A stretch of DNA of 64,000 nt, from sequence record SRR31156797_4650. One strand, given 5' to 3'. A program made the position numbers and the translations under genes. Under the pieces are notes generated by a model that had not been told where the DNA came from, did not search any database, and saw only the letters and a program-made list of their open reading frames with translations. Shown piece after piece: positions 20,185 to 40,611 of the stretch; position 1 is the first letter of the stretch, and every line of letters starts with the position of its first letter.

Positions 20185-22122
20185 ATGAAAGTGACCTTCC
20201 TGCATCGTATTCATTTGTTGCTCTTTATTGTCCTCGCAGCATCTCCTGCCCTTGCAGGAGAACCCTTGCGCATAAGTATTTTCCCTTTCTCGCCGCCGTT
20301 CTCATTTTATGCTGTTCAAGACGGCAATAAACACTTGCAGGGATACACGATCGACGAATGTTTAGCCGTAGGAAAAGAGCTTAAGCGAGACATTGAATTC
20401 ATTACGGTAGGCGCCATCGACAGACAGGTCGGAATTCTCAAGAAAGGCGACATTGCACTCATTGCTCATGATTCCGCTTCCTACGCAAAAACACATGGGC
20501 TAATTTTTCTCCCTGTGGGTGTCAGTCTACAACATCACTTGTACATCCATGAAACCTGCACGCCTTGTATTGACCTGCACAACCCTGAAACTTTTCGAGA
20601 CAAACGCGTCGTCACGGTTAAGGGTGCACCCTACGTCATGGACATTTCAATGGTGCCCAACATCATTGAAGCTCCTTCGGCCCTCGAAGCCCTGAACCTC
20701 CTCAATCAGGGGATTGCTGATATTTATATAGCCCCCTCCGAACGGGTGGCGGACTATCTCATCACAGCCAATGACTTTGATGCAATCCTTAAAGACGGTG
20801 ACTTTATCGGAGAAGCTCCATTAGGATTCGTCGTCAACCCCGAAGACACGGAACTTATGAAGCGACTCAAAACCGCTATCAAAACGCTAGAAAGACAAGG
20901 CACCCTCGCCAGCATCCGAGATAAATGGTTCGACCAGCCACATGAGTTCTCACTCTCAAAATACTCCAGACAGATCGCCCTGACCGCATTGGGTATAGCG
21001 GCCCTGTTTGTCATGTTCGGCGTGTGGAATCTTTCCCTGAAGCGACGGGTAGCTCAAGTGGCGCGAGACTTGCGCCAGACTGAACAACGATATCGAGATC
21101 TCATCGAGTCATCACCCGATATGATTTTTTTGGTGACTGAGGACGGCGAAATCCTCCACGCCAATGAACGAGCATGCACCAATCTCCGCTTGAAGACACC
21201 GTTTAAAGGATTAAATCTGCAGAAGCTGATCGCACCGGAAGACAAAGAAGAAGTCGCCCCCTTTCTGGACAAGGTGTTCAACGACGGATGCGATAAATTC
21301 GAATTCAGGATGGACGAAAAAACCGGGCAGGACATGGAGGTCGAAATCGCAGGCCGAATCCTGCAAGGCCCCATTCAACCGGGACTGCTAGCCTGTCTGT
21401 TTGCACGTAATGTCACGGACAGAAATCGCATGGAAGAAGAACTCATCCAATCAGAACGACTCGGCATCATAGGCAAAATGGCCGCTGGCGTTGCCCATGA
21501 GATCAATAACCCGCTGGGAATCATCCAGTTCAACGCCGAAGATCTGCTCTATGCTGAAGAAATGAGCACCGAGGCCAAAGAAGGACTGACAGCCATCTCC
21601 CGCAATGCGGCCAGAGCCGCGGATACAATCACTCACATGTTGGACTTGGCCTCCCCAAAACCAATGGTGAACGACATTTTTCATCTTGAAGATGCGGTCA
21701 AGGATAGTCTGGCTCTGTTGGGACCCAAGATCAAAAAAACAGCACTCACACTGGATATTCAAAACGAACCACTAAGCATGCGAGGAGACTCCCGCGCTAT
21801 CCAACAAGTACTGGTCAACCTCCTTCTCAATGCCCTGAGCAGTATGCAAGGTAAGGGAAGCATTTCCATTTTCGGAGACAGGTCCCACGAAAGCATCCGC
21901 CTTGTTATCGAAGACAAAGGGAAAGGCATTGCGCGAAAAGATCTCCCTCATATTTTCGATCCATTCTTTACATCAAGAAAAAATGGATTCGGGCTGGGAC
22001 TATTTATCACTCGCCGCATAGTGGAACGCCATGAAGGCATCATTTTTGCTGAGTCCGAACCAGATGAAGGAACGCGAATGATTTTGGAATTTCCCCTGCA
22101 CGAAGATGAAGAGAGCGCATAA
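20185..22122 (+). CDS. Sensor kinase: periplasmic substrate-binding (PBP2) domain, TM, PAS, HK
   Basis: Signal peptide, PPFSF...GYTID...IRDKWF PBP pattern, RYRDLIESSPD PAS start, [16 protein letters not shown]. Confidence 0.9.
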   Translation: MKVTFLHRIHLLLFIVLAASPALAGEPLRISIFPFSPPFSFYAVQDGNKHLQGYTIDECLAVGKELKRDIEFITVGAIDRQVGILKKGDIALIAHDSASYAKTHGLIFLPVGVSLQHHLYIHETCTPCIDLHNPETFRDKRVVTVKGAPYVMDISMVPNIIEAPSALEALNLLNQGIADIYIAPSERVADYLITANDFDAILKDGDFIGEAPLGFVVNPEDTELMKRLKTAIKTLERQGTLASIRDKWFDQPHEFSLSKYSRQIALTALGIAALFVMFGVWNLSLKRRVAQVARDLRQTEQRYRDLIESSPDMIFLVTEDGEILHANERACTNLRLKTPFKGLNLQKLIAPEDKEEVAPFLDKVFNDGCDKFEFRMDEKTGQDMEVEIAGRILQGPIQPGLLACLFARNVTDRNRMEEELIQSERLGIIGKMAAGVAHEINNPLGIIQFNAEDLLYAEEMSTEAKEGLTAISRNAARAADTITHMLDLASPKPMVNDIFHLEDAVKDSLALLGPKIKKTALTLDIQNEPLSMRGDSRAIQQVLVNLLLNALSSMQGKGSISIFGDRSHESIRLVIEDKGKGIARKDLPHIFDPFFTSRKNGFGLGLFITRRIVERHEGIIFAESEPDEGTRMILEFPLHEDEESA

Positions 22123-23474
22123 TGCCCGACAAGATACTATTGGTCGATGATGAGCTGGACCTCCTGTCTACTGTTTCACGAGCCTTGAAACGGCAAGGAT
22201 ACACTGTCCACACAGCCATATCAGGTGCGGAAGCTCTAGAGGCCCTATCAGAAACCATATATGACCTCGTCATCAGTGACCTCGCCATGGAGCCCATTGA
22301 CGGCATGGAGTTACTCAAACGAATCCGCTCCATTGATACCCTCTTGCCTGTAATAATGATGACCGGCGTCGGGACCATCGAGACCGCTGTGGAATCCATC
22401 AAACTCGGTGCCTATCATTATATCACCAAACCATTCACTCCACAGGATTTGCTGCTCCTCGTCCACCGGGCCATCGAGCATGGACAACTCAATCGCAAGC
22501 TCGAATCCATTCAGGCTCGTGACGACAATAAAGAAAGTGATTCCATGGTCATCGGCAACAACGCCATGATCCAGCAAATGATGACAACCATGGACAAAGT
22601 GTCTGAATCGGATGCTCCCATTCTCATTCAGGGGGAAACCGGCACTGGTAAGTCCCTATTTGCCAAGCGCATTCACACGATCAGTTCACGATCGAACAAA
22701 CCTTTTTTCACCATTGATTGTGGCGCACTCACCGAAACCTTGCTGGAAAGTGAACTCTTCGGCCACGTTAAAGGAGCATTCACTGGGGCTACACGCGCCA
22801 AGCGCGGCCTGCTTGAAGAAGCGCAGGGGGGCACGATTTTTCTGGACGAAATCGGCGATTTATCGCCCTCAACGCAGGTAAAACTCCTTCGGGCCATTCA
22901 GGAAAAAGAAATCAAGCCTGTGGGCAGCAATACATCAAGCCTCATTGATGTCCGATTTCTCGCCGCCACCAGTCGCGACCTTGAATCAGGGGTGGAGACC
23001 GGCGAATTCCGCAAGGACCTCTATTACCGCCTTGCAGTCATTCCCGTTCGTCTGCCGCCATTGCGTGAACGTCAGGATGACATCGTCCTGTTCGTCGATT
23101 TCTTTGTGCGCAAATTCAACAAGCGCTATAACAAAGCCGTGACAGCCATTGACCCCAGTGCCATGCAGGTCATTCTCGATTCTCCATGGCCGGGAAATAT
23201 CCGAGAACTGGAAAATGTCATTGAACGCGCCGTCCTTCTCGCAAATGGTGAAACCATTGCCCTAAACAGCCTCAACACCTGCCCACAGTCCTTTGCTACA
23301 ATGCAAACTCATGATGCCCCTCTCCCACTCAAAACAGCGGTCTCGAAAGCTGAAGCAACCGCTATTCGCACAGCCTTGAAAGCGACCAATGGCAACAGGT
23401 CAAAAGCAGCGCAAATTTTGGGCATCGGCAGAACGACCCTGTATGAAAAGATTGATACTTATCGCATAGACTGA
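22122..23474 (+). CDS. NtrC-family sigma54 response regulator
   Basis: Receiver, [23 protein letters not shown] and Fis-type HTH ([20 protein letters not shown]); start overlaps the kinase stop. Confidence 0.95.
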
Positions 23475-23505
23475 CGATTCGAATCACCACCAAGACAGCC
23501 GAAAA

Positions 23506-23538
23506 GGGGCGCCCAACACCCGATGTGTTGAACGCCCC
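23506..23538. terminator. Hairpin between convergent genes, probable intrinsic terminator
   Basis: GGGGCG..CAACAC/GTGTTG..CGCCCC stem with an A-run on the left (U-tract for the minus strand). Confidence 0.6.
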
Positions 23539-23563
23539 ATATCTATTGAGGAGGTAAAACTCT

Positions 23564-25087
23564 TTAGTAAACCGGCATGGTGTTAGGACCATCGTCGGTA
23601 TCAACTTCGACCTCTTCTCCCTCATCAGTCATGGAAACATTGGAGAGAAGACCGCCGCCGGTCATTTCTCCGACTCTGGGCTTTTGTCCCTTGACATTCG
23701 GAAGCTGAAAACTGTTGTTTTCCGGGGGCACAACAGCCACTTCTTCAGCATGCTTGCCCTGCGGTGCCCACTCGTAGGGGACACGATAGGCGCGGTATAC
23801 GTAATTCGTACCGGGGATGTTTCCGGGATATGGGGAGATGTATTCCCAGACGACTTCGCCTTCATGAGTCACTTCAATGAAACGACCATTGGACCCTTCA
23901 CAGATCAAGGTGTTGCCGTTGGGCAAACGCTGCGCGGAGCTGATAAAGGGGCTAAACTCTTCATAACCAAAGAGCTTCCAAGGCTTCTTGCGGGACTTGA
24001 TGGAATATTCCCACACGACTTCCTTGGTCACAGGATCGATTTCCAATACGCGGGAGTAGAAACGATGGATTGTTGCCAGTCCGTTGGGAGACATGGAGTT
24101 GGGTGCGCCGTAGCCAGCCTGACCACCGTTGTCATAGACCATCACGTTGCTGCCACCCGGCAAACCATTGGGAATCATATGTGTATGGTGGGGTCCAAGA
24201 ATCTGACCAATCTTTGCTTCTGCACCCTGAGTATAGTCCGGGCCGAGACGCCAGACGACCTTGCCGGTCTCGTGGCTGATAATACACAGGATATTGGCTT
24301 CACGAGAGTCAAAAATGATGTTGTCAGGATGAAAACGCTTGTCGCCTGCATCGTACCATTTGTTGGGTCCGAGGTAGGATGCGCAGTTCTGATGCCACCA
24401 GTCAAAGCCGTTCTTTTCGGCACCGGCCTTGGGGCTCCAGCCCTTGATGGCCTTGATGGCGTCTTTATCAAAACCATATTCCTTGAAATGCTCAGAAGCG
24501 ACCCATTCCCAAATGACCTTACCGTTTGCATCCACTTCGTACACGGTGTCGTCCATCAGCACATGGTCGCTGACATCCTTGTTCACGTGCCACTTATGCC
24601 CCAGAATCAAGGTCTTGCCCTTCATCTTGTAGTCATGGCCCGGCACATAATAAACAGGGTTACCGGCATGTTGCAGGTCATGATGCTGTGTGGAAATCCA
24701 CATATCGCCTGCAGCGGGATTTTTGGGGTCTTTGACGACCTTGGCATACTTGCCGAATTCCCAGACTGTCTTGCCATTCCAGTCGAGCTGCTTCACGGTT
24801 ATGGCATCATCAATGTACCCCTTCCAACGTTCACCGGTGGAAAGAATCTGGCCGCCGGGCAACATCTTTGCGGGAAATCCGTTCACCCCTTCCCATTCAT
24901 TGACGAGATTACCATTCATATCCACAAGGCGGGCTTTACCACCTGCAATCAGCGTGTAGCCATTAAACGTCTTGTCCGGGGAATACTTTACCGTACCAGT
25001 CGGAAACACCGAGGTGGTAGCATAGGCTGCTGTAGCGACAAGAACCATCGCAAAAGCCAGCAAGGCCTGTCGTGTTACTCTTTTCAT
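23564..25087 (-). CDS. Periplasmic aryl-sulfate sulfotransferase (ASST) paralogue 1
   Basis: Sec-pathway signal peptide; beta-propeller repeats (G.V.WE[FWY]); QHHD, DWWHQN, DSRE and GPHH match the catalytic His/His-Asn/Arg/His pattern; SSAQRLPNGNTLI, YRAYR. Confidence 0.88.
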   Translation of the reverse strand: MKRVTRQALLAFAMVLVATAAYATTSVFPTGTVKYSPDKTFNGYTLIAGGKARLVDMNGNLVNEWEGVNGFPAKMLPGGQILSTGERWKGYIDDAITVKQLDWNGKTVWEFGKYAKVVKDPKNPAAGDMWISTQHHDLQHAGNPVYYVPGHDYKMKGKTLILGHKWHVNKDVSDHVLMDDTVYEVDANGKVIWEWVASEHFKEYGFDKDAIKAIKGWSPKAGAEKNGFDWWHQNCASYLGPNKWYDAGDKRFHPDNIIFDSREANILCIISHETGKVVWRLGPDYTQGAEAKIGQILGPHHTHMIPNGLPGGSNVMVYDNGGQAGYGAPNSMSPNGLATIHRFYSRVLEIDPVTKEVVWEYSIKSRKKPWKLFGYEEFSPFISSAQRLPNGNTLICEGSNGRFIEVTHEGEVVWEYISPYPGNIPGTNYVYRAYRVPYEWAPQGKHAEEVAVVPPENNSFQLPNVKGQKPRVGEMTGGGLLSNVSMTDEGEEVEVDTDDGPNTMPVY

Positions 25088-25168: not shown

Positions 25169-25184
25169 TTCAAGGAGCGTTCCA
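25169..25184 (-). promoter_or_regulatory. Sigma54-like promoter of ASST1
   Basis: Minus strand TGGAACGCTCCTTGAA; correct GG-N10-G spacing, variant -12. Confidence 0.55.
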
Positions 25185-25332
25185 AACATGACTTCATGGA
25201 ACAACAAGGTGATACAAAATTCACATTCAACTTAAAGCCTTAAATTACAAGCTAATAGAACTTCTCAAGCTTGTTATCAATCGCTCAGATTTCCACCCAA
25301 GACAACATGGTGTTATTTTCGTCACAGCTGGT

Positions 25333-25370
25333 TGTCCGGCTGACCGAACACTTGTGCGCGGCATCGGACG
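25333..25370. promoter_or_regulatory. Enhancer-like sites upstream of ASST1
   Basis: TGTCCGGCTGACCGAACA and TGTGCGCGGCATCGGACG, degenerate TGTGC-N8-GCACA. Confidence 0.5.
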
Positions 25371-25472: not shown

Positions 25473-25802
25473 CTAACACTTGGATGGAGCCAATGCAGGC
25501 TCTGCATCCGGGTCAAAAACCACGTCGCCGTCGTCTGTAACCTGCGGATTCAATTCTTCCAGAAAGTCCTGGGTCATGCCGGGAACCTTGACCATATCGT
25601 CAGCTTTTTTGAACGGTCCGTTGACTGTACGGTATTCAACAATGGCCTTGGCAATGTCCTCGGGGACATCCACATCTTCGATGGCCATAAGCTCTTCCAC
25701 GCTGGCCTTATTGAAGCTGACGATGTCATCCTGAGCAAAAGCTGCTGTGGCAAACAACATGCACAGTGCGGCCACACAGATGGTTATGATAAATTTGTTC
25801 AT
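25473..25802 (-). CDS. Exported acidic ComEA-like helix-hairpin-helix protein with C-terminal Cys
   Basis: Signal peptide; VSFNKASVEEL...AKAIVEYRTVNGPFKKADDMVKVPGM HhH pattern; ends PALAPSKC. Confidence 0.8.
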   Translation of the reverse strand: MNKFIITICVAALCMLFATAAFAQDDIVSFNKASVEELMAIEDVDVPEDIAKAIVEYRTVNGPFKKADDMVKVPGMTQDFLEELNPQVTDDGDVVFDPDAEPALAPSKC

Positions 25803-25881: not shown

Positions 25882-27321
25882 TTAATCAGCCTTGATACGG
25901 AATGTGGTGTTTTCCGGCGGAGTGACGGCCTTCTCCTTGGGCTGCTTCAACTGGGGAACATAGTCATACGGTACACGCATGGCGCGATAAACCAGATTGT
26001 AATTACCCTTTTTGGTGTAATACGGGCTGATGTATTCCCAAACGATTTCGTGATCTGGGGTCACTTCCTGGAACTGACCGACTGCGCCGTTAGTAATCAT
26101 CGTGTTACCATTGGGCAAACGCTGTGCAGAGGACACGTAATCGGAGTAGAACTGGTACTTGTTACGCATACCCATCTGCTTGGCGGAATGTTCCCACACG
26201 ATTTTCAGAGTACGAGGATCGAACTCGATAACGCGGGAATAATCACGACGAGCATTTGACCAGCCATAAGGTGCACCGGGGTTGCGCGGGCCATAACCAG
26301 CATAACCGCCATTGTCGTAAACCATGATATTGCCTTCACCCGGCAGCCCCTTGGGGATCATGTGGGTGTGGTGCTGACCGATGATCTGGCCGAGCTTCTT
26401 GTAGGCCTTCTTGTACTTCTTGCCGTTGAATTCCCAGACGGAATCCTTGTAGTAATAGGGACCAATCTGCCAAACGAGCTTGCCCGTCTTCTTGTCGATG
26501 ATGCAGGACGTGTTGGTCTGCCGGTTGGAAATAATGATATTATCCGGGTTGAACATGGAATATGTCTTCGGATCTTCATCGTACCACTTGTTGGGGCCGA
26601 GATAAGAAGCCGCATTGACATGAATCCAGTCGCCACCCTTCTTGCCCGGAGTACGAGTCATGGAGAAAGTGGGGTACTTACGCAGAGTCTTCTTGAATTC
26701 CGGGGGGAAATTCATTTCGTCAAAATGGTCAGAAGCGAGCCATTCCCAAATGATCTTGCCGTTCTTGTCCACTTCCACGATGTAATCATCGTACAACTCT
26801 TTTTTAGTGATCTTATCGTTGTGTACGAACTTGTGAGACAGAATCAACATCTTGCCCTTGCGGTTGTCTACAGGCATGCCGGGAGCGTGGTAGCCAACAG
26901 GGTTGCCTTCGAACTGGTAATCATGGTGCATACCTGCACGGGGAATCTTGCGAACGACCTTTTCGTTCCAGTCAACAACCACAAGGTCAGTCGAAGACTC
27001 GTCGCCCCAGGCCCGGCCCTTTTTCTCAGGCGAAGGACGCTTGGCACCAGCCAGATAACCACCCTTCAACAATTTGGGCGGATGCTCGGCCTGACAAATG
27101 TCCTTCCATTGCTTTACCACGTTACCATTCATGTCGATGAGCACGGTGCCTTCGGATTCAACCTCGGTACCGAACACGGTAAAGCCGTTCCAGCACTTCG
27201 AAGGCTTATAAATGGTCGTTCCATGAGGAAATACGGTGGGAAAGCTCATGGCCTCCATGGGATTGACCAACGCGGTGGCGGCAAGGGCTGCGCACCCGGT
27301 CAAAAACTGACGTCTTTTCAT
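25882..27321 (-). CDS. Tat-exported aryl-sulfate sulfotransferase paralogue 2
   Basis: Twin-arginine signal MKRRQFL; MHHD, DWIHVN, SNRQ, GQHH; SSAQRLPNGNTMI. Confidence 0.88.
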   Translation of the reverse strand: MKRRQFLTGCAALAATALVNPMEAMSFPTVFPHGTTIYKPSKCWNGFTVFGTEVESEGTVLIDMNGNVVKQWKDICQAEHPPKLLKGGYLAGAKRPSPEKKGRAWGDESSTDLVVVDWNEKVVRKIPRAGMHHDYQFEGNPVGYHAPGMPVDNRKGKMLILSHKFVHNDKITKKELYDDYIVEVDKNGKIIWEWLASDHFDEMNFPPEFKKTLRKYPTFSMTRTPGKKGGDWIHVNAASYLGPNKWYDEDPKTYSMFNPDNIIISNRQTNTSCIIDKKTGKLVWQIGPYYYKDSVWEFNGKKYKKAYKKLGQIIGQHHTHMIPKGLPGEGNIMVYDNGGYAGYGPRNPGAPYGWSNARRDYSRVIEFDPRTLKIVWEHSAKQMGMRNKYQFYSDYVSSAQRLPNGNTMITNGAVGQFQEVTPDHEIVWEYISPYYTKKGNYNLVYRAMRVPYDYVPQLKQPKEKAVTPPENTTFRIKAD

Positions 27322-27393: not shown

Positions 27394-27409
27394 AGCACAG
27401 ACCGTGCCG
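27394..27409 (-). promoter_or_regulatory. Sigma54 promoter of ASST2
   Basis: Minus strand CGGCACGGTCTGTGCT (GG-N10-GC). Confidence 0.7.
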
Positions 27410-27462
27410 AAAAGAATACTCACAGTATTTTAGATAGATAGACCACAAAGCAACATCTTTTA

Positions 27463-27511
27463 AGTGCGTCATCATGCACACTCGCCCGAACAGTGTACGG
27501 ACCGACGCACA
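27463..27511. promoter_or_regulatory. Paired enhancer-like sites upstream of ASST2
   Basis: AGTGCGTCATCATGCACA (27463-27480) and TGTACGGACCGACGCACA (27494-27511), offset 31 bp. Confidence 0.65.
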
Positions 27512-29109: not shown

Positions 29110-29125
29110 TCCAACTTTCGTGCCA
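29110..29125 (-). promoter_or_regulatory. Sigma54 promoter of ASST3
   Basis: Minus strand TGGCACGAAAGTTGGA. Confidence 0.7.
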
Positions 29126-29184
29126 TTATTTTGTTTTTAATTATTCAATATATTCGAATACTTAAAGTCAATTAAAAATACCTT

Positions 29185-29234
29185 CATGCCAAGTTCCGCA
29201 CACCATCCCAGACGACTGTGTTAACGTCCGCACA
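29185..29234. promoter_or_regulatory. Paired enhancer-like sites upstream of ASST3
   Basis: CATGCCAAGTTCCGCACA (29185-29202) and TGTGTTAACGTCCGCACA (29217-29234), offset 32 bp. Confidence 0.65.
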
Positions 29235-30878: not shown

Positions 30879-30938
30879 GCACACAAAATGAAAAATTTCA
30901 CAATATTACAAGGTATTACAGCACCGAAAAAGATCACT

Positions 30939-32356: not shown

Positions 32357-34298
32357 TGATGTCTTCCTTGTGTCCATATGCGGGAAATTCCAAAATCATA
32401 CGAGTACCTTCCCCAACTTCCGACTCAGCGAAAATCAAACCATCATGGCGCTCAATCATACGACGGGTAATGAACAGGCCCAGACCGAACCCACCCTTGC
32501 GAGATGTAAAAAACGGTTCAAAAATACGTGGCAAATTCTCGCGAGGAATACCCTTTCCCTCGTCCTTGACCTCCAGTCGCACAGTTTGAAGATCGTTCTC
32601 TCCCTGCCGCCAAACCAGAATCTCGATAGAACCAGTCCCGTCCATGCTCGCTAATGAATTGAACAACAAATTCACAATGACCTGTTGTAAAACACGGCTA
32701 TCGCCTCGAATAAAGAGAGGGCCGTCCTCTACGCGAACTTCAATTCTGCTCTTTTTCACTTTGGGACCAAGCAGGGAAAGCGACTCATGAATCATATCGC
32801 CTACATCTATTCTTTTTAAAGAAATGGGTTGGGGAGAGGCTGCTTCAAGCAGTCCCTTGGTTATCTCGCCGGCACGGATAGCGTTCCGTTGAATAGCGGA
32901 CAGCCCTTCTTTCACGCCATCATCCACATCAGCTTCATACAGCAGGTCCTCGGCATTAGCCTGAATAATACCCAAAGGATTATTGACTTCATGCGCCACG
33001 CTTGCCGCCATTTTTCCTATAATTCCAAGCCGCTCAGACTGGATAAGTTCCTCTTCCATACGATTGCGTTCTGTCACATTCCGCGCAAAAAGACATGCAA
33101 GGAGTTCAGTATGCAGCGGCCCTTGAATAACGCGACCAGCAATCTCCACTTCCATTGGATTGCCCGACACACTTTGCATGCTGAATTCGTGCTTGTCGCA
33201 CCCGTCATTAAAAACCTTGGTCAAGAACACCGCTATTTCATCAACATCATCAGGAACCATAATCTGACCAAGATTTACAACGTCATCCTGATCTGGAAAC
33301 AAAAGGAATGATTGAGCACGCTCATTGGCGTGTAAAATATCACCAGCTTCGTTAACCAAAAAAATTACATCAGGAGAAGATTCGATTAAATCACGATACC
33401 GTTGTTCTGTCCGGCGCAAATCGCTGGCGGCCTTGTCCACTCGACGTTTGAGCGAAACATTCCACAAAACAATACCTATAAAAATCAAACCGACTATCGC
33501 CACAGCGATGGCAATATGTTTGGCATAATAAGCAAGGCCGTCCCTTCGCGAATGCTCACCAAACCATTTATCTCGCAACTGAGCCAAATGTCCGGTTTCC
33601 CGCAAGTGCCGCACGGCAGACATCAGGTCAGCAGCAAACTGCCTGTCGTGCCGTGATACAGACAGCCCAAGAGGCACTTCGCCCAAGACCTTCCCTTTTT
33701 TCTCGATATTCGAAAAACCATTCTGATCAATCAGGTAATCCGCCACCCTCTCGGACGGCGCCACAAAAATTTCAACAACACCCTGATCAAGCATACTCAA
33801 GGCTTCAAGCGGAGAGGTCACTTTAATCACATCATTGCCGAACTCGACTTCCGGGCTATAGGGAGCCCCGGTAATCGCCACCACACGCTTGCCAACGAGT
33901 TTATTTGAATTATTAACCACTGGACTCTTCGTGTTGACGAAAAGGTGATTACGTAGGCTGTATCCAAGCGGAATAAAAACAAATGAAGAACGGGAAGACG
34001 GGCGTGATCCGTGTGCCATGAGGTCAAGTTGCCCGTCTGCATACATGCGAGGGTAATCAACCAGACTATCTACAAGAACAAATTCGATATCCGCATCAAG
34101 CAGTTCACCAAGCAAAACCCATTCATCGATGGAATAACCACGAACCCCTTGTTCACCATCCTGCATGGCAAGAAATGAAAATGGTGGAGATATAGCCCGA
34201 ATACCAACCTTGCAAGTCTCACGACACCATGCATTGCCAGCTGAAAAAAACAGAACAAACGCCATAAGGATCAGGCTGAGGTAAACAAAGCGTCGCAT
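32346..34298 (-). CDS. Sensor kinase PBP2-TM-PAS-HK, paralogue of 20185-22122
   Basis: Signal peptide MRRFVYLSLIL; PPFSF, APSERVADYLI, RYRDLIESSPD, SVAHEVNNPL, GFGLGL; start placed at ATG 34298. Confidence 0.9.
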   Translation of the reverse strand: MRRFVYLSLILMAFVLFFSAGNAWCRETCKVGIRAISPPFSFLAMQDGEQGVRGYSIDEWVLLGELLDADIEFVLVDSLVDYPRMYADGQLDLMAHGSRPSSRSSFVFIPLGYSLRNHLFVNTKSPVVNNSNKLVGKRVVAITGAPYSPEVEFGNDVIKVTSPLEALSMLDQGVVEIFVAPSERVADYLIDQNGFSNIEKKGKVLGEVPLGLSVSRHDRQFAADLMSAVRHLRETGHLAQLRDKWFGEHSRRDGLAYYAKHIAIAVAIVGLIFIGIVLWNVSLKRRVDKAASDLRRTEQRYRDLIESSPDVIFLVNEAGDILHANERAQSFLLFPDQDDVVNLGQIMVPDDVDEIAVFLTKVFNDGCDKHEFSMQSVSGNPMEVEIAGRVIQGPLHTELLACLFARNVTERNRMEEELIQSERLGIIGKMAASVAHEVNNPLGIIQANAEDLLYEADVDDGVKEGLSAIQRNAIRAGEITKGLLEAASPQPISLKRIDVGDMIHESLSLLGPKVKKSRIEVRVEDGPLFIRGDSRVLQQVIVNLLFNSLASMDGTGSIEILVWRQGENDLQTVRLEVKDEGKGIPRENLPRIFEPFFTSRKGGFGLGLFITRRMIERHDGLIFAESEVGEGTRMILEFPAYGHKEDINAA

Positions 34299-34367
34299 GC
34301 CGGTCCCATAACGCAAAGAGCCACTATGCACCAGTCCGTACAACGCCCATTTCCCGAAGACAGGGAT

Positions 34368-34395
34368 TTCCCCCGGCATGTCCATACCGGGGGAA
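34368..34395. terminator. Hairpin after the selenoprotein operon
   Basis: TTCCCCCGG/CCGGGGGAA stem; no strong U-tract, so read-through into the kinase gene is possible. Confidence 0.45.
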
Positions 34396-34446
34396 GTCTC
34401 AGGGAGGAGGTATGATGAATCAATATTATTCATCTGGTTATGGTGA

Positions 34447-35145
34447 CTACTTTGCCTGACCAATCAACACGGCCTTATACCCTTTGCCTATGTCATTTCT
34501 GGCATCGGAATAGACCATGATGATATCCATGAACCGACCGGGCTTATTCGGTGTGACTAAGAACTCGACGGGTGCGATCTGCCCGGCTTCGAGTTTCAGA
34601 GAGCCCTGCCAGTACGTTGTTTTAAACTTGCGCGACTTGATTGCCGTCACAATCATGGGCGCGTCTCCAGCATTCTTGATCATGATTTTAGCAGGAGTCG
34701 CCTTACCGTTGCTCAAACCATCTACTGAGGTCTTGCGTGGGGTTACTTCCATAACCCCCATGGGGATCGGCTCAACATAACCAACGATATGAATTATCTG
34801 CTGGTTCGCTTTACTTTCGCCTGTGCTGACCGTCACCGTCTTATCGAATTTTCCCGGATACTTGAACGTGTTATAGCTGATGACCATTCCAACAGATTCG
34901 CCAGGGTTGATGTTGCTCTGTCCCAGAGCAGTTGTGGTGCAACTTCACGACGTCGTCACGTTCTTGATCGTGACAACCTCCTTGCTGACATTGGTGAGCA
35001 TCACCGTTTTGCTGGCAACAGGCCCTTCGATCATGGAACCGAAATCAACCTTCATATCACTGATGGAAACGGGCTGGGCCGCCATTGCCGAAGAGGCAAA
35101 CAGCAAACCGAGCACCAGAGCCATAAGCTGAATTTTCTTGAACAT
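34447..35145 (-). CDS. Predicted periplasmic selenoprotein, DUF1573-like plus second Ig-like domain, 232 aa, Sec at TGA 34945-34947
   Basis: ORF-track pieces 34945-35145 and 34447-34887 are in one frame with no other stop: ...VTIKNVTTS-TGA-SCTTTALGQSNINPGESVGMVISYNTFKYPGKFDKTVTV...; the TGA aligns with the first Cys of the DUF1573 SCGCT motif; SECIS-like hairpin follows; signal peptide. Confidence 0.82.
34912..34944 (-). other. Candidate bacterial SECIS element
   Basis: After the UGA: AGUUGCACCACAAC-UGCUCUG-GGA-CAGAGCA-AC; 7-bp stem with a G-initiated apical loop 21 nt downstream of the UGA. Confidence 0.7.
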
Positions 35146-35154
35146 AGTGAGTCC

Positions 35155-35613
35155 TTACTTTTTCCCGTGAACGAACCGGGATTTCAAACTGTAATCAAAG
35201 TTCTTGTCCTGCCCTTCGGTATGACAGGTGCGGCAATTATCCTCACCGGGCTTCCCGATAATATCCTTGGGGTCCTCGGACTCGGTATGAGCCAACCCCG
35301 GACCATGGCAGGATTCACACTGAACATCCTTGAGTTCAGGGGTCAGTTCCATGTCAATGAAGCCGCCGTCCGCATCCATTGCCACCACGTGACACTGGAC
35401 ACATCCCTGCACCTGTTGCTTTTCCTCGCCCTGCTCCTTGAGGGTCTCGAAAGCGTGCGCATGCGGGGTCGCCTTCCACCCCTCCACGATCTCCGCGTGG
35501 CAGTCCGCACACGCTGTGTACCCCACGTAATCGCCAAAAAGTTCGGCATTGGCAGCCGAAACCAGCGACAAGACAAAGAAAATGGCAACGATGCTGAGCA
35601 CAAGGCGATTCAT
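35155..35613 (-). CDS. Periplasmic tetraheme cytochrome c, c554-like
   Basis: Signal peptide; four CxxCH (CADCH, CVQCH, CESCH, CRTCH); YVG..C..CH......W..T.HA.A and VQCESCHGPG patterns. Confidence 0.9.
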   Translation of the reverse strand: MNRLVLSIVAIFFVLSLVSAANAELFGDYVGYTACADCHAEIVEGWKATPHAHAFETLKEQGEEKQQVQGCVQCHVVAMDADGGFIDMELTPELKDVQCESCHGPGLAHTESEDPKDIIGKPGEDNCRTCHTEGQDKNFDYSLKSRFVHGKK

Positions 35614-35622
35614 GATATATCC

Positions 35623-35925
35623 CTAACAGTTACAAGATGATGCAGGTTCCAAAAACAAGAACTTGCTCAGTTTACGCAATAAGGTGGAATCAATGCCGTC
35701 CACATCAAGCAATTCATCCATATCCACGAACTCTTCATTTTCAGTACGCAACTCGATAATTGCCTCGGCCATGGGCTGATCAATGCCGTCGATGGCAACC
35801 AACTGCTCCACGGTTGCGGTATTAAGATTAAGCTTGCCATCATTGTCACCGGCAAAAGCGGGAACAGAGGCTATGGCAATGGTCAACATAAGGGTCAATG
35901 CGATGATGATATTTTTCATTTTCAT
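35623..35925 (-). CDS. Exported acidic ComEA-like HhH protein with C-terminal CxC
   Basis: Signal peptide; LNLNTATVEQLVAIDGID...AEAIIELR...LLDVDGID; ends EPASSCNC. Confidence 0.8.
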   Translation of the reverse strand: MKMKNIIIALTLMLTIAIASVPAFAGDNDGKLNLNTATVEQLVAIDGIDQPMAEAIIELRTENEEFVDMDELLDVDGIDSTLLRKLSKFLFLEPASSCNC

Positions 35926-35936
35926 ACTCCTAAAGA

Positions 35937-36140
35937 TTACCAGCCGAGATAGTGATGGCTGTACAAAACGGACCAGACCAGACAGGAAACAGTTCCGCTG
36001 GCTATTCCGGAAAACACTTTTTTTGCGAATGATGTGGTGCCCCTATGAGCCTTAAACGCGCCCATATACAAGGCTGCGGAAGACATAAGGACCAACAAAA
36101 CAGCGACCAATGGCAGAATGACGTAGTAGATGCCATGCAT
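35937..36140 (-). CDS. Small two-TM membrane protein, 67 aa
   Basis: GGAGG SD upstream, two hydrophobic segments, 11-12 nt gaps to both neighbours. Confidence 0.65.
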   Translation of the reverse strand: MHGIYYVILPLVAVLLVLMSSAALYMGAFKAHRGTTSFAKKVFSGIASGTVSCLVWSVLYSHHYLGW

Positions 36141-36152
36141 TGTGAAGCCCTC

Positions 36153-36305
36153 CTAGAGCATACCCATGTATTGGCTGATGGTGATAATGGCCATAATTGC
36201 CAAGGCAAAGATCACGCCGAGGCTATCCCGGTCCTGTTCTTCCTGTCCTTTATTGTCCATATAATTGAACCCGGTTTCATCCGTGGTGTGCATATGTCTC
36301 TTCAT
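36153..36305 (-). CDS. Small single-TM protein, 50 aa
   Basis: AAGGAG SD before ATG 36305; MKRHMHTTDETG...LGVIFALAIMAIITISQYMGML; tight operon spacing. Confidence 0.6.
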   Translation of the reverse strand: MKRHMHTTDETGFNYMDNKGQEEQDRDSLGVIFALAIMAIITISQYMGML

Positions 36306-36316
36306 TGTCAGACTCC

Positions 36317-37489
36317 TTAGGCCGGAAGCAGGCCAGTTTTGACGCAAAGCAGGATCACTGCCAACAACAGCGCGATACGAATGAATCCGGCAATACAGGT
36401 GACCAGAAATCCTTTGAAGCCATGCTCACCTATGTCACGGAAGGAAAGGGAAAGCCCAAGAGCACCCGCTGCCAGCGAGAAATCCCACTTGACCATTTCA
36501 AAAATGGCATGATGTGCAGGCTCCTTAAAGACATGCAGGCAGGCCAGCACCCAGAAGAAAATGAACACGCCAAGCCACAACGGGAAAGTCTTGATGCCAC
36601 GGGTGGCACGGACTTCCTCATTATTCCTGTTCCGCAATTTGCGAATGAACATGACGATGAACACATACAGAAAACCAGCGGGCATAATCACATGGCGGCC
36701 AACATCAAACCAGCTTGCCCAACGCCCGGCCTCGTAACTGTTGCCAAAGGCGGCATAAAGGCCTTGTGTGCCGTTACCGACACCGACAACGGATGCCAGC
36801 CCAAAATACTTGGCCGGAATACCGATCAGATCACCCAGAACTGGCAGAAGCTGCATGGCAATTAGGCCAAAGACAATGACACAGACAAAGGCATTGACGA
36901 CCTGACCGCCCTTGGCTTTGATCAGCGGCATGAGAATGGCGCAGACATGAGGATCACCTGTAGACAGGCCACCCGCGATGATAGAGCCATGCCGGTCGTC
37001 CAACTTGAGCAGTCGGGATACCCCCAATGTCACAGAGGCTGTGACAAACAAGGAGCCGGTGCAAATCAAGATGGGGATCAGGCCTATCTTGAAAGCATGA
37101 CCGATCATGAAATGCGGGGCCAGCATGATGATACCTAACGGCATCAACATATGAATGTAGGACAGTCCACGCTTCCAGCTATCCGGCACACCGAAGATGT
37201 TCCCAATAAGCAAACCGAGCAGCAGCGGATTCCAGACAAAGTTAGAGTTCAATATCTGAAAGAAAGGCTGATGGTTCAGCGGACCGATAACTCCGTCAAG
37301 CCATGCAAACAGATTCTGGAGCGTGAACGGATTCGGCACGCCCGCCAAATTGTTACTGAAGATGGCGACAAAGAACATTGCCAGCAGACCGGGCAGCACT
37401 TCCTTGAGGCTGTAAAGCGAACTGAACCAGGATTTCCTGTTCAGATCGTAGTTCAATGTTGCACTCGAAGTATTCATTATATTCCTCAT
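36317..37489 (-). CDS. YeiH/UPF0324 (putative sulfate exporter family) membrane transporter
   Basis: About ten TM helices; VLPGLL, LLLGLLIGN, GIIML, IIAGGLS and AAGALGLSLSFRDIGEHGFKGF resemble YeiH; divergent member. Confidence 0.7.
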   Translation of the reverse strand: MRNIMNTSSATLNYDLNRKSWFSSLYSLKEVLPGLLAMFFVAIFSNNLAGVPNPFTLQNLFAWLDGVIGPLNHQPFFQILNSNFVWNPLLLGLLIGNIFGVPDSWKRGLSYIHMLMPLGIIMLAPHFMIGHAFKIGLIPILICTGSLFVTASVTLGVSRLLKLDDRHGSIIAGGLSTGDPHVCAILMPLIKAKGGQVVNAFVCVIVFGLIAMQLLPVLGDLIGIPAKYFGLASVVGVGNGTQGLYAAFGNSYEAGRWASWFDVGRHVIMPAGFLYVFIVMFIRKLRNRNNEEVRATRGIKTFPLWLGVFIFFWVLACLHVFKEPAHHAIFEMVKWDFSLAAGALGLSLSFRDIGEHGFKGFLVTCIAGFIRIALLLAVILLCVKTGLLPA

Positions 37490-37508
37490 TATTTCTTATA
37501 AATGGCCG

Positions 37509-40415
37509 CTAGCGACGGATATGGGCAGAACCGCCGGTATTCACAGAACCACTCAACTTTTCGTGCGGAGCGTGTTGCCCGATACGCCAGTAATCCTTGA
37601 AAGCGAGACGGGGCAGCATTGAAAGGCGCAGGAAGCCTTCGATAGTCCCGTTAACTCCCACCAGCACGTCGACATTGTTCCTCGGGCGGAAGGCTAGATT
37701 CTCGGTGGAATAATGCTTTTTCCTGTACTCGGTCTCAATGTGCCATGCGTGGACCATTTCACCATCAAAGCTATCCACCACGATCGTGAACAACGGCTTG
37801 CCGCTCTCATCACGAGGCCCTTCATAGACAGGATGTTCCTTATCCAGAATGATGGTCTCAGGGTTGTCCAAAAGGACTTCGTTGAGCTGATAGCAGTGTC
37901 CGCAAACGTCAGGGCGAACCATGAAACGCGGATCATGCTCAAACGGTGTATCTCGCTCCAATTCCTGAATGTCGGTGAAGAAGTAGAGATTGACCTTGCC
38001 GTCCTTGAAGGGCTTTTTCACATCCAGTTCAGCCATCACTGAACCATACTTGAACTGCATGGTCTGGGCGACATCCTGATGCTGTGGCAGCAATTCTTTG
38101 GCGGCGGCGTTCAGCGGACCAAGAATCTTGGAATCAACATGGTTACCTTTGGCATCCAACAAGGTCAGGTCAACGGTTCCGGCTGCGGCATCAAAACCAT
38201 TCAGTTTCAATGTAAACTCACCGAGCTTTGCCGTTTCCTCGACAGCTAAAGAATGTCCCTTTGGCTTGTTGAAGGTATAGCTGATGGCTTGAATAGATGG
38301 GGTACCGAATTCCTTGATCTTCACGTAATTGGAACCGATGTATTCCGGTACAATGTAAGTAGCCCCTTCCGAAAAGACTTCTGGCATATAGTAACGATTG
38401 CCCGCTTTTTCATCTTCATTGAAGCCTTGCGCAAGATAAAAATGTGCGCCCCAACGGTTACCGGAATATTTCATGAGAGAAAGCGAGGCCACAGGACGGT
38501 CATCCAGATACGTGTGGCCGGTATACCGAAGTGCCTTGTTACGCACGCCGAGCATCTCATCCTGCCAGTACATCAAGTTGCCATCGCCCATGGGCTGATT
38601 TTTCCAGAAATCCAAATCCAAGTTTTTGCGAACAAACGTACCAGAAGTGAATGTTGCCAAATAAGCACGTTTGCCAAGCATGAAGAAGGACTCGCCTGCC
38701 AGCGTGCGGATATTTCGCGCATTGCGGGAGGTGTAGCAGAGGCCGGCAGGCGGAATGACGATACGATTATTTTTGTAATCGACATAACTACCGCGAATAA
38801 CGATGGCCTCGGCGGACAACAGTTTTTCCCGTTTACGATTACGCGAAGTTTTGCGCATCAATCCTTTGAGACGAGGCACAAAAGGCGCGGTGTGATCCGG
38901 CTCGTAAAAAGATGAATTGGGGACAATCTTGGGATAGGAAGTAAAACGGGATTCCTCAACCACGGTGCCGTATGAAGAATCGGCAAGACGTGTAAGGAAA
39001 CTGCCTTCGATCATCGGCTCAAGAACCGGTGAAGAACCAAGAAAGAAATCAAGGTTTGTCCGACCTTCGTCGGCCCACATAACCATATTATCCGTCCGCA
39101 TCATATAATAATCGCGAACGTACAAATTACGAACCACGTCGCCTTCAAATTTGTTGGCAACCACTTTAAACGCGGGACGATTCCAAATTTCGGAATATTT
39201 CACAGGCCCGTCAAAACTGTCATTCTCATTGTCGAAAACCAACACGTCATTGTTCTCAATAAGGAGACGCTGCAACATCCCTGTCTTGAGGTTCGGCTCA
39301 AGCACAACAGAATACCGAGAATCCAAGGGCCAGTCCTGACCATTTTTCACGGTGACGAGGTCGCGATAGACAACAAAGGAAAAATGACCGGTTGAATATC
39401 CATGGGACTTGCTGGTGGCCCAAGGAACAAAATCAGAATCCTTGAGGAAACTCGGATCCATGACAATCTCAACACGCATATCCAACTCGGGAATCGTCAG
39501 GTTGTACTTGTCCTTTTCCCCCATCCGTGACTTGTACTCCTGCGCAGATGTCGGCTTGACCAATTTCTCGGCCAGCACTTCGCTTCCAGTAAAGTTGGTG
39601 ACCTTCACCATAAAACCATCAGGCTGGCGGTAAGCATAGATGCGCTTGTCACCATAGAAACGATAGTCTTCCTGGCGTACTTCCAGAATTATTGGACGCT
39701 GCATGGAAAAAGTCGCATCCGTGATTTCTGGAAATTCAATGGACTCAAACACTGCATCGTCAAAATCGATCTTGCTGGCCACATACTTGCTGGCACCGAA
39801 ATAATAGGTGTTGTCCAGATAGAAATTCTCCAACTGGGAATTCAATCCTTCCTTGAGAGAAAGCTGACGGACCTCTTCACGCTTGGGAAACACGGTTGAA
39901 ATAGGAAATTCAAGCGGCCATCCACCAGACGGAGACATCACAGCCAGTTCGGCATACGGCTTTTCATAATGGTCCGTGGAATAATCGAACCAGAGGCGGT
40001 ACCCGGTGTCACCCAGCGGTTTCCGGTCACCCTTCTTGAGAGCGAAATCCTTAAAGACTCGCTTGGTAGAATTAAGGTCTACAAGATACGCGTGTTCGCC
40101 CAACACAAGAAATGGATCGCGCATGAAAGGTCGAGCATCGTGGGATGTTTCGGAAAGGTAGAACAACCCGCCGGGTTGAACTGTGGCTTTGCCATCCTTG
40201 ATCTCGCTGCCGCGCATGATAATGGCTTCGGACAAATGCTTTTTCTGTCCGTACTGGTTCTTGTAAACCTTGTTTCGCAAGCCTGCCAGATGCGGCAAAA
40301 AAGTCATATCCGCTGCCGGGGACAACCCATGCGGATCATTGGCGGCCAAACCTACTGTAGGTATGGCAAAAAGGATCGCCAACGCGATGGCCAGAAGTCG
40401 TACTGTGTTTTTCAT
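37509..40415 (-). CDS. Large exported protein with two-fold internal duplication and a CGHC motif
   Basis: 968 aa; signal peptide; FLPHLAGL...EAIIMRGS...PGGLFY...FLVLGEHAYL repeats as FVPRLKGL...EAIVIRGS...PAGLCY...FFMLGKRAYL; DVCGHCY at 37893-37904. Confidence 0.85.
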   Translation of the reverse strand: MKNTVRLLAIALAILFAIPTVGLAANDPHGLSPAADMTFLPHLAGLRNKVYKNQYGQKKHLSEAIIMRGSEIKDGKATVQPGGLFYLSETSHDARPFMRDPFLVLGEHAYLVDLNSTKRVFKDFALKKGDRKPLGDTGYRLWFDYSTDHYEKPYAELAVMSPSGGWPLEFPISTVFPKREEVRQLSLKEGLNSQLENFYLDNTYYFGASKYVASKIDFDDAVFESIEFPEITDATFSMQRPIILEVRQEDYRFYGDKRIYAYRQPDGFMVKVTNFTGSEVLAEKLVKPTSAQEYKSRMGEKDKYNLTIPELDMRVEIVMDPSFLKDSDFVPWATSKSHGYSTGHFSFVVYRDLVTVKNGQDWPLDSRYSVVLEPNLKTGMLQRLLIENNDVLVFDNENDSFDGPVKYSEIWNRPAFKVVANKFEGDVVRNLYVRDYYMMRTDNMVMWADEGRTNLDFFLGSSPVLEPMIEGSFLTRLADSSYGTVVEESRFTSYPKIVPNSSFYEPDHTAPFVPRLKGLMRKTSRNRKREKLLSAEAIVIRGSYVDYKNNRIVIPPAGLCYTSRNARNIRTLAGESFFMLGKRAYLATFTSGTFVRKNLDLDFWKNQPMGDGNLMYWQDEMLGVRNKALRYTGHTYLDDRPVASLSLMKYSGNRWGAHFYLAQGFNEDEKAGNRYYMPEVFSEGATYIVPEYIGSNYVKIKEFGTPSIQAISYTFNKPKGHSLAVEETAKLGEFTLKLNGFDAAAGTVDLTLLDAKGNHVDSKILGPLNAAAKELLPQHQDVAQTMQFKYGSVMAELDVKKPFKDGKVNLYFFTDIQELERDTPFEHDPRFMVRPDVCGHCYQLNEVLLDNPETIILDKEHPVYEGPRDESGKPLFTIVVDSFDGEMVHAWHIETEYRKKHYSTENLAFRPRNNVDVLVGVNGTIEGFLRLSMLPRLAFKDYWRIGQHAPHEKLSGSVNTGGSAHIRR

Positions 40416-40472
40416 TCTCTTGTTCCTGAGTGTCTGAATTCAATGTCCATGGACAAATGTCTTCAAACATAG

Positions 40473-40488
40473 AACAAGAAGCGTACCA
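40473..40488 (-). promoter_or_regulatory. Sigma54-like promoter of the seven-gene selenoprotein operon
   Basis: Minus strand TGGTACGCTTCTTGTT, 57 nt before the ATG, with an AT-rich tract upstream. Confidence 0.6.
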
Positions 40489-40562
40489 CTTCATAAAAAA
40501 ATAATTAAAACCTGTTTTTACAGTAACTTAAAAAACAAAATCTCAAATCAACTTTTCAAGAC

Positions 40563-40611
40563 TGTGCAGATGGCCGCACACTCATTTCTCGAGTGTCCCT
40601 CAATACGCACA
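40563..40611. promoter_or_regulatory. Paired enhancer-like sites upstream of the selenoprotein operon
   Basis: TGTGCAGATGGCCGCACA (40563-40580, perfect TGTGC-N8-GCACA) and TGTCCCTCAATACGCACA (40594-40611), offset 31 bp. Confidence 0.7.

Follow-up and report, generated by a model that had tools for sequence, protein, structure and literature searches.

The window analysed here, the whole 64,000-nucleotide (nt) stretch of sequence record SRR31156797_4650, contains a gene cluster that combines four exported proteins of the arylsulfate sulfotransferase family (ASSTs), an exported protein of 968 amino acids (aa) with a Cys-Gly-His-Cys site, and small secreted helix-hairpin-helix (HhH) proteins that end in cysteine. 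The cluster, which is carried by sulfate- and sulfite-reducing anaerobes, may yield sulfite from sulfate esters without ATP. Homologue names suggest a Pseudodesulfovibrio-like genome; in the nearest genome compared, G001, the 968-aa gene is 99% identical. The genes and control regions are listed in Table 1. All genes from 23564 to 40415 lie on the minus strand, and the first of two sensor kinase/NtrC pairs converges on them from the plus strand. The second pair (34463..31001, minus strand) lies between ASST4 and a seven-gene operon, which spans 40415..34447 (minus strand); by open reading frame (ORF) coordinates its intergenic gaps are 19, 11, 12, 11, 9 and 9 nt. An earlier note on this DNA had described two ligand-binding kinase/NtrC pairs, a tight operon with gaps of 9-19 nt, and a second HhH protein with a terminal Cys after ASST2. 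ORF lists and Pfam matches place both pairs and all seven named operon genes where that note had put them, and the protein after ASST2 (25802..25473) is an HHH_3 protein that ends in -PSKC.

The distribution of the cluster was examined through the 968-aa gene. The locus sample consists of the 80 best among 116 relatives that were obtained by scanning a single genome of each species; genes around them were scored by tblastn at >40% query cover, and ASSTs were counted within 10 kb. Flanks of the full 10 kb are available for just 42 of the 80, so the gene counts are lower bounds. An HhH gene is found in 69/80 loci and an ASST in 61/80, and a YeiH homologue follows the 968-aa gene in 74/80. The hosts include Desulfovibrionaceae (among them gut Mailhella), Desulfobacterales, Desulfatiglandales and Syntrophales, and further Acidobacteriota, Tectomicrobia, Methylomirabilota and one genome labelled Anaerovoracaceae. 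Because the 80 loci were chosen through the 968-aa gene, a reverse check was run in 301 genomes of the phylum, which were searched for ASSTs and for the 968-aa gene. The full-length gene is present in five of them and a fragment in a sixth, and ASST-like genes are present in 23, including all six. Orthologues of ASST2 with at least 57% identity occur only in five of these six genomes. The cluster is thus a conserved, multi-phylum one defined by the 968-aa gene, and the association of operon genes with ASSTs on which the earlier note had built recurs elsewhere.

The four ASSTs match PF05935 at 71-111 bits, all above the gathering score of 24.2, and also match PF14269; N-terminal signal sequences are recognized by eye in all four. 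The motifs HH, DWxHxN, R and (Q/N/P)H are invariant among them. Residues H254, N256, R272 and H318 of ASST4 align with H356, N358, R374 and the sulfo-His H436 of E. coli AssT, the last being the residue altered in the H436N PDB entries. The same His/Asn/Arg/His set is invariant in 29 ASST2-type and 35 ASST4-type sequences as well as in the four window paralogues. A profile made from 35 ASST3/4-type sequences finds E. coli AssT in the PDB (E 6e-8); the profile was needed, as sequence searches of the PDB with one or with four sequences reached Streptomyces Cpz4 only. ASST4, the only one of the four to be modelled, gave an AlphaFold2 (AF2) model with a predicted local distance difference test score (pLDDT) of 86.6, and the top PDB folds for it are Cpz4 (9kf6/9kf4, E 1e-18) followed by E. 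coli AssT (4p04/3ets/3elq, E 1e-14). Equivalent residues have been described in Dh_ASST_6: His220, His283, Asn285, Arg301 and the sulfo carrier His350, stated to be conserved in the accessible part of a preprint, which also presents ASSTs as ping-pong enzymes that transfer between phenols and are hence reversible (bioRxiv 10.64898/2026.10.08.757636). Judged by this common residue set, the alignment to AssT and the fold, the catalytic apparatus of the window ASSTs is intact, as the earlier note had read it from the motifs of four exported paralogues.

ASST2 is the most conserved ASST of the cluster, with 45-86% identity across the 80 loci (51-86% among 28 aligned sequences). Its twin-arginine signal had been considered as a hint of a cofactor, an idea that was dropped because distant ASST2 orthologues carry ordinary signal peptides. 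Selenocysteine (Sec) inside ASST homologues, raised by '1 TGA' flags, was likewise rejected: the aligned cores of three flagged regions and one unflagged region contain no in-frame stop. A fifth, distant ASST-family match lies in G001 (C1 15190-16458) inside an open frame of ~1059 aa.

The main new observation concerns the C-terminal tails. A Tyr tail is shared by ASSTs, HhH proteins and a third protein family. Terminal Tyr is found in 30 of 112 ASSTs, including ASST1, ASST3 and ASST4 of the window. In 26 of the 30 it is preceded by a low-complexity linker and the motif ...DGP[A/T]M[H/K]xY or a similar one (TSMHNY, SAFKRY); the other four end in -KY, -QY or -PY without the linker motif. The third family consists of secreted proteins of ~164 aa, unrelated to ASST or HhH proteins, and 20 of 21 members end in Tyr (...GFHVY, ...GGLHTY). 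These proteins have no Pfam or NCBIfam match and are usually encoded just upstream of an ASST2-type gene (L045 7314-7808 and 20 others, e.g. L036 7610-8107).

The HhH proteins carry three kinds of tail. A total of 137 HhH ORFs were gathered by BLAST, the endings not being used for selection: 72 end in CxC (mostly CNC or CTC), 51 in PSKC, 10 in Tyr (e.g. PGMKSY), one in another Cys ending and three otherwise. Terminal Cys is therefore present in 124/137, and -PSKC, -CxC or -Tyr in 133/137. The -PSKC and -CxC endings are kept across phyla. In 36 of 40 cases the ASST2-type gene has an HhH gene with the PSKC ending directly 3' of it; of the four exceptions, two or more sit at a locus edge. The tail is the best-conserved part of the PSKC proteins in an alignment of 35 sequences, an invariance that is partly circular because those sequences were picked by tail. 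When tail kinds are counted per locus in the 42 loci with full flanks, 28 have all three, seven have CxC and Tyr, six have CxC and PSKC, and one has CxC alone.

A phenol is the acceptor that ASST chemistry calls for. A terminal Tyr carried by an acidic arm amounts to a tethered phenol, and a terminal Cys beside it to a tethered thiol. In the ASST4 model the tail (residues 480-506) is disordered, which fits the expectation for a flexible arm. The earlier note had proposed that the sulfuryl group is passed to a Cys-tailed carrier and had compared it with SoxY. The idea of such a carrier gains support from the -PSKC and -CxC endings conserved across phyla, the Tyr-ended arms and the Sec/Cys redox sites described below. 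In Pfam searches the window HhH proteins match HHH-type families only and show no homology to SoxY, SoxZ or DsrC, and they are for this reason analogues rather than members of the SoxY/DsrC carriers. A complex prediction for ASST2 (26-479) with the PSKC HhH protein (24-109), made without supplied alignments, scored 0.02 and speaks neither for nor against binding.

The 968-aa protein consists of two tandem DUF1608/S-layer-like modules followed by a C-terminal domain that contains C838-G-H840-C841. Its AF2 model (pLDDT 85.7) is nearly all beta. The sole specific fold match in the PDB is the DUF1608 S-layer domain 3u2g (Foldseek probability 1.0), a partial match with a target-normalised TM-score of 0.32 that covers part of the model. 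The window protein has no match in Pfam, PF07752 included, or in NCBIfam; one homologue, P0004, carries a precomputed PF07752 match. A search of the ESM Atlas with residues 790-950 gave no usable match. Among 8000 candidates scored, 242 relatives were found at E <= 0.001. The best 120 of these 242 are 48-97% identical, and the named ones are all called hypothetical. C838, H840 and C841 are invariant in 47 sequences of the family. In all three half-length paralogues (~490 aa), C838 is replaced by a TGA codon for Sec, so that RPDT-U-STC aligns with RPDV-C-GHC. Each of the three is preceded by a small secreted low-complexity protein that ends in ...APD[E/Q]GC, and none of the three loci has an ASST, HhH or YeiH gene nearby. 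Taken together, the 968-aa family seems to act on C-terminal Cys arms through its C/U-x-x-C site. The three short Sec paralogues are found at L081 5539-7533, L082 4482-6400 and L083 5726-7507, two of them close to an NtrC-type gene.

The operon itself has a candidate Sec site in its last gene. The DUF1573 reading frame is open only if TGA codon 67 is read as Sec, giving TS-U-SC. In 28 homologues this codon is TGA in 13 and TGT or TGC (Cys) in 15, a pattern usually seen in genuine selenoproteins whose site is redox-active. Folding of the 70 nt that follow the TGA gives hairpins, candidates for a selenocysteine insertion sequence. The protein scores 49.6 against NF041425 (OS_HP2), below the cut-off of 100. 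Both the CGHC and the UxC sites have Sec/Cys counterparts and are for that reason taken to be redox-active. A general dependence on selenium, as the earlier note had it, does not follow, since 15 of the 28 homologues have Cys at the Sec position.

Nor are the cytochrome and the selenoprotein core parts, as had been supposed. The two genes always occur together, in 28 of the 80 loci. A molybdoenzyme, an oxidoreductase of the molybdenum-bis(pyranopterin guanine dinucleotide) (Mo-bisPGD) type, is found with an iron-sulfur (FeS) subunit in 30 loci in their place, 19 of which also have an NrfD subunit. One or the other module is present in 56/80 loci and both in two loci only. The tail of the HhH protein changes with the module: CNC co-occurs with the cytochrome in 26 of 39 loci, and CTC with the molybdoenzyme in 26 of 31. 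The cytochrome/selenoprotein pair is thus optional, and the molybdoenzyme is an alternative electron-input module. None of the curated NCBIfam equivalogs fits this enzyme: Fdh-alpha, NasC and PhsA (225 bits) all score below cut-off. Examples with a twin-arginine translocation signal and FeS and NrfD subunits are L052 5630-9345 and L046 5780-9570. The match of the window cytochrome (35155-35613) to NF041198, 'UshA-like (seleno)protein', covers the last 117 positions of the model, its tetraheme end; this family is a further instance in which the heme domain is linked to a Sec/Cys protein.

The YeiH-type protein matches PF03601 with 88.3 bits (cut-off 24.5). The small membrane proteins 1 and 2 are found in 40/80 and 33/80 loci, respectively. 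In 31 loci a gene for a protein of ~163 aa, with no signal and no Pfam or NCBIfam match, lies just downstream of the YeiH-type gene (e.g. L046 14531-15022); it is absent from the window.

The five transcription units of the window, the operon and the four ASST genes, have similar control regions. A GG-N10-TG element resembling a -24/-12 promoter is found 58-100 nt before the start codon of all five. Only the ASST2 element has the canonical -12 GC and is picked up by a strict search for the sigma54 consensus; the other four deviate at -12. The pattern TGGHAC-N5-KTGNW has four matches in the window, three of them upstream of units. The 18-bp palindrome TGTNCG-N6-CGNACA occurs five times where 1.4 occurrences are expected, and each of the five is upstream of the operon, ASST1 or ASST2; looser copies precede ASST3 and ASST4. 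Promoter-like elements and palindromes, such as the earlier note had assigned to all five units, are recovered, the former with a deviating -12 at four units and the latter in a looser form at two. Both NtrC proteins carry the sigma54-interaction domain (PF00158, 222-226 bits). GC-rich hairpins follow each ASST gene, which are therefore separate transcription units under one control. No RNA sequencing run covering 31000-40700 was found; the matches were four DNA runs from one study.

Table 1. Genes and control regions of the cluster (positions in the window)
Feature	Position	Strand	Characteristics
Sensor kinase 1	20146..22122	+	SBP_bac_3, PAS, HisKA, HATPase (Pfam)
NtrC-type sigma54 activator 1	22122..23474	+	Receiver, Sigma54_activat, HTH_8
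ASST1	23564..25087	-	Exported ASST-like propeller; tail ...DDGPNTMPVY
ASST1 control region	25169..25370	-	TGGAAC-N5-TTGAA (25169-25184); palindromes 25333-25350, 25353-25370
HHH_3 protein, secreted, end -APSKC (single-Cys arm)	25473..25802	-	PF12836; 3' of ASST2
ASST2	25882..27321	-	Twin-arginine signal (KRRQFL), no tail
ASST2 control region	27394..27511	-	CGGCAC-N5-GTGCT (27394-27409); palindromes 27463-27480, 27494-27511
ASST3	27586..29067	-	ASST4 paralogue, same tail ...EEDGPAMHAY
ASST3 control region	29110..29234	-	TGGCAC-N5-TTGGA (29110-29125); palindrome 29217-29234
ASST4	29301..30821	-	Exported ASST-like propeller; acidic linker and tail ...EEDGPAMHAY; PF05935 111 bits
ASST4 control region	30863..30988	-	TGGCAT-N5-TTGGA (30863-30878); TGTGCGG repeats 30951-30988
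NtrC-type sigma54 activator 2	31001..32377	-	Receiver, Sigma54_activat, HTH_8
Sensor kinase 2	32346..34298	-	Periplasmic SBP_bac_3 plus PAS, HisKA, HATPase; start codon uncertain
DUF1573 selenoprotein candidate	34447..35145	-	PF07610; TGA codon 67 = 34945-34947; motif TS-U-S-C-T
Tetraheme c-type cytochrome	35155..35613	-	PF13435; four CxxCH motifs
HHH_3 protein, secreted, end -SSCNC (CxC arm)	35623..35925	-	PF12836
Small membrane protein 2	35937..36140	-	67 aa, two helices
Small membrane protein 1	36153..36305	-	50 aa, one C-terminal helix; start set by homologue comparison
YeiH-type polytopic membrane protein, putative anion channel/transporter	36317..37489	-	PF03601
968-aa exported protein (big968)	37509..40415	-	Contains RPDVCGHCY; no Pfam/NCBIfam match
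Operon control region	40473..40611	-	TGGTAC-N5-TTGTT (40473-40488); 18-bp palindromes 40563-40580, 40594-40611

Around the cluster the window carries unrelated genes, among them those for NhaB, further kinases, a DASS and a BCCT transporter, a CoA-enzyme activase, a TonB receptor and an MMPL protein. A third sensory set is found at 15663-20081, with a dCache kinase on the minus strand and, on the plus strand, an 835-aa sigma54 activator that has a long N-terminal sensor region; a sigma54-like site lies at 17460-17475. Further upstream, a 1023-aa ORF without a Pfam match occupies 12578-15649 (plus strand), with a good sigma54-type site on the opposite strand (TGGCAC-N5-TTGCT) at 12362-12377.

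The hosts were compared for the sulfate- and sulfite-reduction enzymes AprA and DsrA. Both are present in G001 and in a Desulfomicrobium genome. In the eight gut Mailhella/Desulfovibrionaceae genomes with the cluster, whose completeness is not given, AprA is above cut-off in none and DsrA in three, and in one more the DsrA match is truncated at a contig end. DsrA is above cut-off in three of five hosts outside Desulfobacterota. The Anaerovoracaceae-labelled locus (L034) and a Desulfatiglandales-labelled one (L036) have nearly the same gene coordinates and protein starts; this likeness, with no DsrA found in the L034 genome, suggests a recent transfer or a problem of labelling or binning. Four gut genomes, G307-G310 (those of L020, L027, L029 and L019), have 16-20 weak matches each to the AprA model (~20-110 bits), which look like fumarate-reductase-type flavoproteins and suggest that these genomes contain large families of them.

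The favoured reading, to which we assign a probability of roughly 0.4, is that the cluster encodes a sigma54/NtrC-induced periplasmic system in which sulfuryl groups of aryl sulfates would be handed along protein-tethered acceptors until sulfite is released. Its chemistry may be pictured, more tentatively, as an ATP-free relay from enzyme-bound His to Tyr-O-sulfate, then to Cys-S-sulfonate and finally to release by a thiol or selenol, serving sulfate-ester respiration, also in gut Desulfovibrionaceae in which no APS (adenosine 5'-phosphosulfate) reductase is detected. The variable 'collector' ASSTs (ASST1, 3 and 4) would accept the sulfuryl group of an external aryl sulfate on the catalytic His and from there pass it to the C-terminal Tyr, the tethered phenol on its flexible acidic arm. 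This arm is fused to the ASST in the window and would be provided by the HhH or the 164-aa protein in other genomes. ASST2 would then transfer the group from this sulfated arm to the terminal Cys of the -PSKC HhH protein that is its partner, forming a Cys-S-sulfonate. A thiol or selenol of the redox set, i.e. the HhH -CxC arm, the CGHC site of the 968-aa protein or the UxC site of DUF1573, would attack the S-sulfonate so that sulfite leaves. The resulting disulfide or selenosulfide would be re-reduced by the tetraheme cytochrome or, elsewhere, by the quinol-linked Mo/FeS/NrfD enzyme, and the YeiH-type protein would move the anion across the membrane to DsrAB.

This scheme is the simplest one in which every conserved part has a use. 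The sulfate/sulfite couple lies at about -516 mV and the APS/sulfite couple at about -60 mV; an ester of intermediate group-transfer potential would give a couple within reach of periplasmic hydrogen or formate oxidation. A role in supplying sulfite also fits the gut hosts without detectable AprA, and this host profile fits the direction from aryl sulfate to sulfite better than the reverse. The relay proposed in the earlier note finds partial support, and the tails, the Sec/Cys sites, the host profile and the alternative redox module make it more precise.

Several observations weigh against the relay. The linkage counts are conditional on the 968-aa gene, through which the 80 loci were picked. 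ASSTs stand alone in 17 of the 23 ASST-bearing genomes, those without the 968-aa gene, and five such stand-alone regions in four genomes show neither a Tyr or Cys tail nor an HhH neighbour. The ASST4 tail does not dock in the AF2 model. The 968-aa protein has no recognisable catalytic fold beyond the S-layer-like sandwiches. The YeiH-type protein scores 40.6 bits against TIGR00698, the 'sulfate exporter' model, far below its cut-off of 232.6, and the function of the TIGR00698/YeiH family is itself only putative. DsrA was not found in four of the eight gut genomes, nor in the Methylomirabilota genome or the Anaerovoracaceae-labelled one, all of completeness not given. A thiol acceptor is not reported in the accessible parts of the ASST literature examined. 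Finally, the direction of flow cannot be read from sequence.

An unlikely alternative is that the proteins form a periplasmic redox system for reduced or intermediate sulfur (polysulfide, thiosulfate, persulfide or trisulfide, for example), which would be bound to the Cys arms as in DsrC or SoxY, and that the ASST-like propellers have another role, e.g. binding or processing the arms. Several components are indeed typical of sulfur redox systems, namely the Cys and CxC arms, the Sec/Cys motifs, the multiheme cytochrome and the Psr/Phs-like Mo/FeS/NrfD enzyme, and the short Sec paralogues of the 968-aa protein pair with -GC proteins where no ASST is nearby. The invariance of His/Asn/Arg/His in all ASST subfamilies would, however, be unexpected for a mere binder, and Tyr arms on three unrelated scaffolds lack an obvious role with sulfane sulfur, whereas they are natural ASST acceptors.

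The same parts could also run in reverse, as a sulfite-driven sulfation that needs no 3'-phosphoadenosine 5'-phosphosulfate (PAPS), which we consider rather improbable. Periplasmic sulfite would be fixed oxidatively as an S-sulfonate of the Cys arm, ASST2 would pass the group to the Tyr arms, and the variable ASSTs would sulfate phenolics for detoxification or as products, with electrons going to the cytochrome or through the Mo/FeS/NrfD enzyme to quinone. What is known of linkage and tails is as compatible with this direction as with the other. NrfD-type subunits, here with the molybdoenzyme in 19 of the 80 loci, are usually quinone-linked. By record title many hosts are members of groups known for the degradation of aromatic compounds, e.g. 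Desulfatiglans, NaphS2, Desulfobacula, Desulfosarcina and Syntrophorhabdales. The ping-pong mechanism is reversible, as described in the accessible part of the preprint cited above (bioRxiv 10.64898/2026.10.08.757636). Against this, a need to obtain sulfite is a better fit to the gut hosts, which have arrays of up to five ASSTs and show no AprA; sulfating phenols would be costly because sulfite is the respiratory substrate of the hosts; and the YeiH-type protein would be superfluous if sulfite were used in the periplasm.

It is very improbable that the redox proteins only mature or repair ASST disulfides, the tails being incidental, which was the simpler alternative of the earlier note. DsbL/DsbI form disulfides in E. 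coli AssT, and two cysteines, C417 and C468, are nearly invariant in ASST3/4-type proteins (35-sequence alignment). ASST2-type proteins, however, have no invariant Cys (29-sequence alignment), though ASST2 is the ASST most tightly linked to the cluster. In addition, no thioredoxin-fold or DsbB-like protein is present by Pfam, the terminal Tyr, PSKC and CxC tails are conserved across phyla, the molybdoenzyme replaces the cytochrome in 30 loci, and the short Sec paralogues pair with -GC proteins with no ASST. Equally doubtful is the view that two unrelated functions share a regulator, the ASSTs acting on free phenols and the operon separately: stand-alone paralogues in 17/23 ASST-bearing genomes would suit it, but the linkage persists across several phyla and gene rearrangements, many loci keep to the order ASST2 -> HhH-PSKC -> 968-aa gene, ASSTs and HhH proteins have the Tyr tail in common, and the ASST2 orthologues with at least 57% identity are confined to genomes with the 968-aa gene (5/5).

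Sulfate reducers are thought to need two ATP equivalents for sulfate activation, and organic sulfate esters are assumed to be usable by them only after hydrolysis to sulfate. If the relay is real, a direct periplasmic conversion of aryl sulfate to sulfite would add a new branch to the sulfur cycle of sediments and the gut, and would represent a new, energy-saving mode of respiration. It could also yield H2S from host phenolic sulfates, such as p-cresyl and indoxyl sulfate, in bacteria unable to use sulfate. Covalent transport of a sulfuryl group on the terminal Tyr and Cys residues of flexible arms would be new biochemistry, as would an S-layer-like protein whose Sec/Cys-x-x-Cys site acts on such arms. 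Whatever the mechanism, the cluster offers a testable role for several uncharacterised families: the 968-aa family, DUF1573/OS_HP2, the secreted HHH_3 proteins and the 164-aa family. The accessible portions of the literature searched, supplementary files not being covered, contain no description of the cluster or of ASST-linked sulfate-ester respiration. In the parts available, one article states that organosulfate reduction by such proteins is not established (PMC10932419), and another considers sulfate esters only by way of sulfatases (PMC6129605).

Several known systems resemble parts of the cluster. E. coli AssT (3elq/3ets) and Streptomyces Cpz4 (9kf4) share with the window ASSTs the six-bladed propeller, the His/Asn/Arg set and sulfo-His, export, and the PF05935/PF14269 matches. 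The window enzymes are 15-17% identical to these solved ones and are without the N-terminal sandwich domain. Many cluster ASSTs have a flexible Tyr-ended arm, and their genes lie among those for Cys-armed HhH proteins, the 968-aa CxxC protein, the YeiH-type protein and an electron-input module; unlike in E. coli, no DsbL/DsbI-type genes are found in the cluster.

SoxYZ and DsrC are sulfur carriers that are loaded and unloaded on a C-terminal Cys arm. The HhH proteins are like them in having a Cys at or near the C-terminus, a flexible arm, a small size, and a gene beside those of candidate loading and unloading enzymes. There is no sequence relation, the candidate carriers of the cluster being HHH_3 (ComEA-like) proteins with -PSKC and -C[N/T]C tails, and the Tyr-ended class has no counterpart in Sox or Dsr. 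In assimilatory APS/PAPS reductase an enzyme Cys-S-sulfonate is formed and sulfite is released by a dithiol. The likeness lies only in the proposed chemistry, in which a Cys-bound sulfuryl group would be released as sulfite by a second thiol or selenol. No homologue of this reductase is found in the cluster. The proposed donor is an aryl sulfate, acting through His and Tyr, rather than a nucleotide, and the reaction would be periplasmic, with electrons from the cytochrome or molybdoenzyme instead of thioredoxin.

The tandem DUF1608 protein MA0829 of Methanosarcina (3u2g) resembles the two tandem modules of the 968-aa model. The latter protein is bacterial and periplasmic and has an added C-terminal domain with the invariant C/U-x-x-C site. 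The OS_HP2/DUF1573 selenoproteins share the DUF1573 family and the Sec/Cys-x-Cys motif with the last protein of the operon; the gene of the cluster is set apart by its place, always after those for the tetraheme cytochrome and for the HhH protein ending in CNC.

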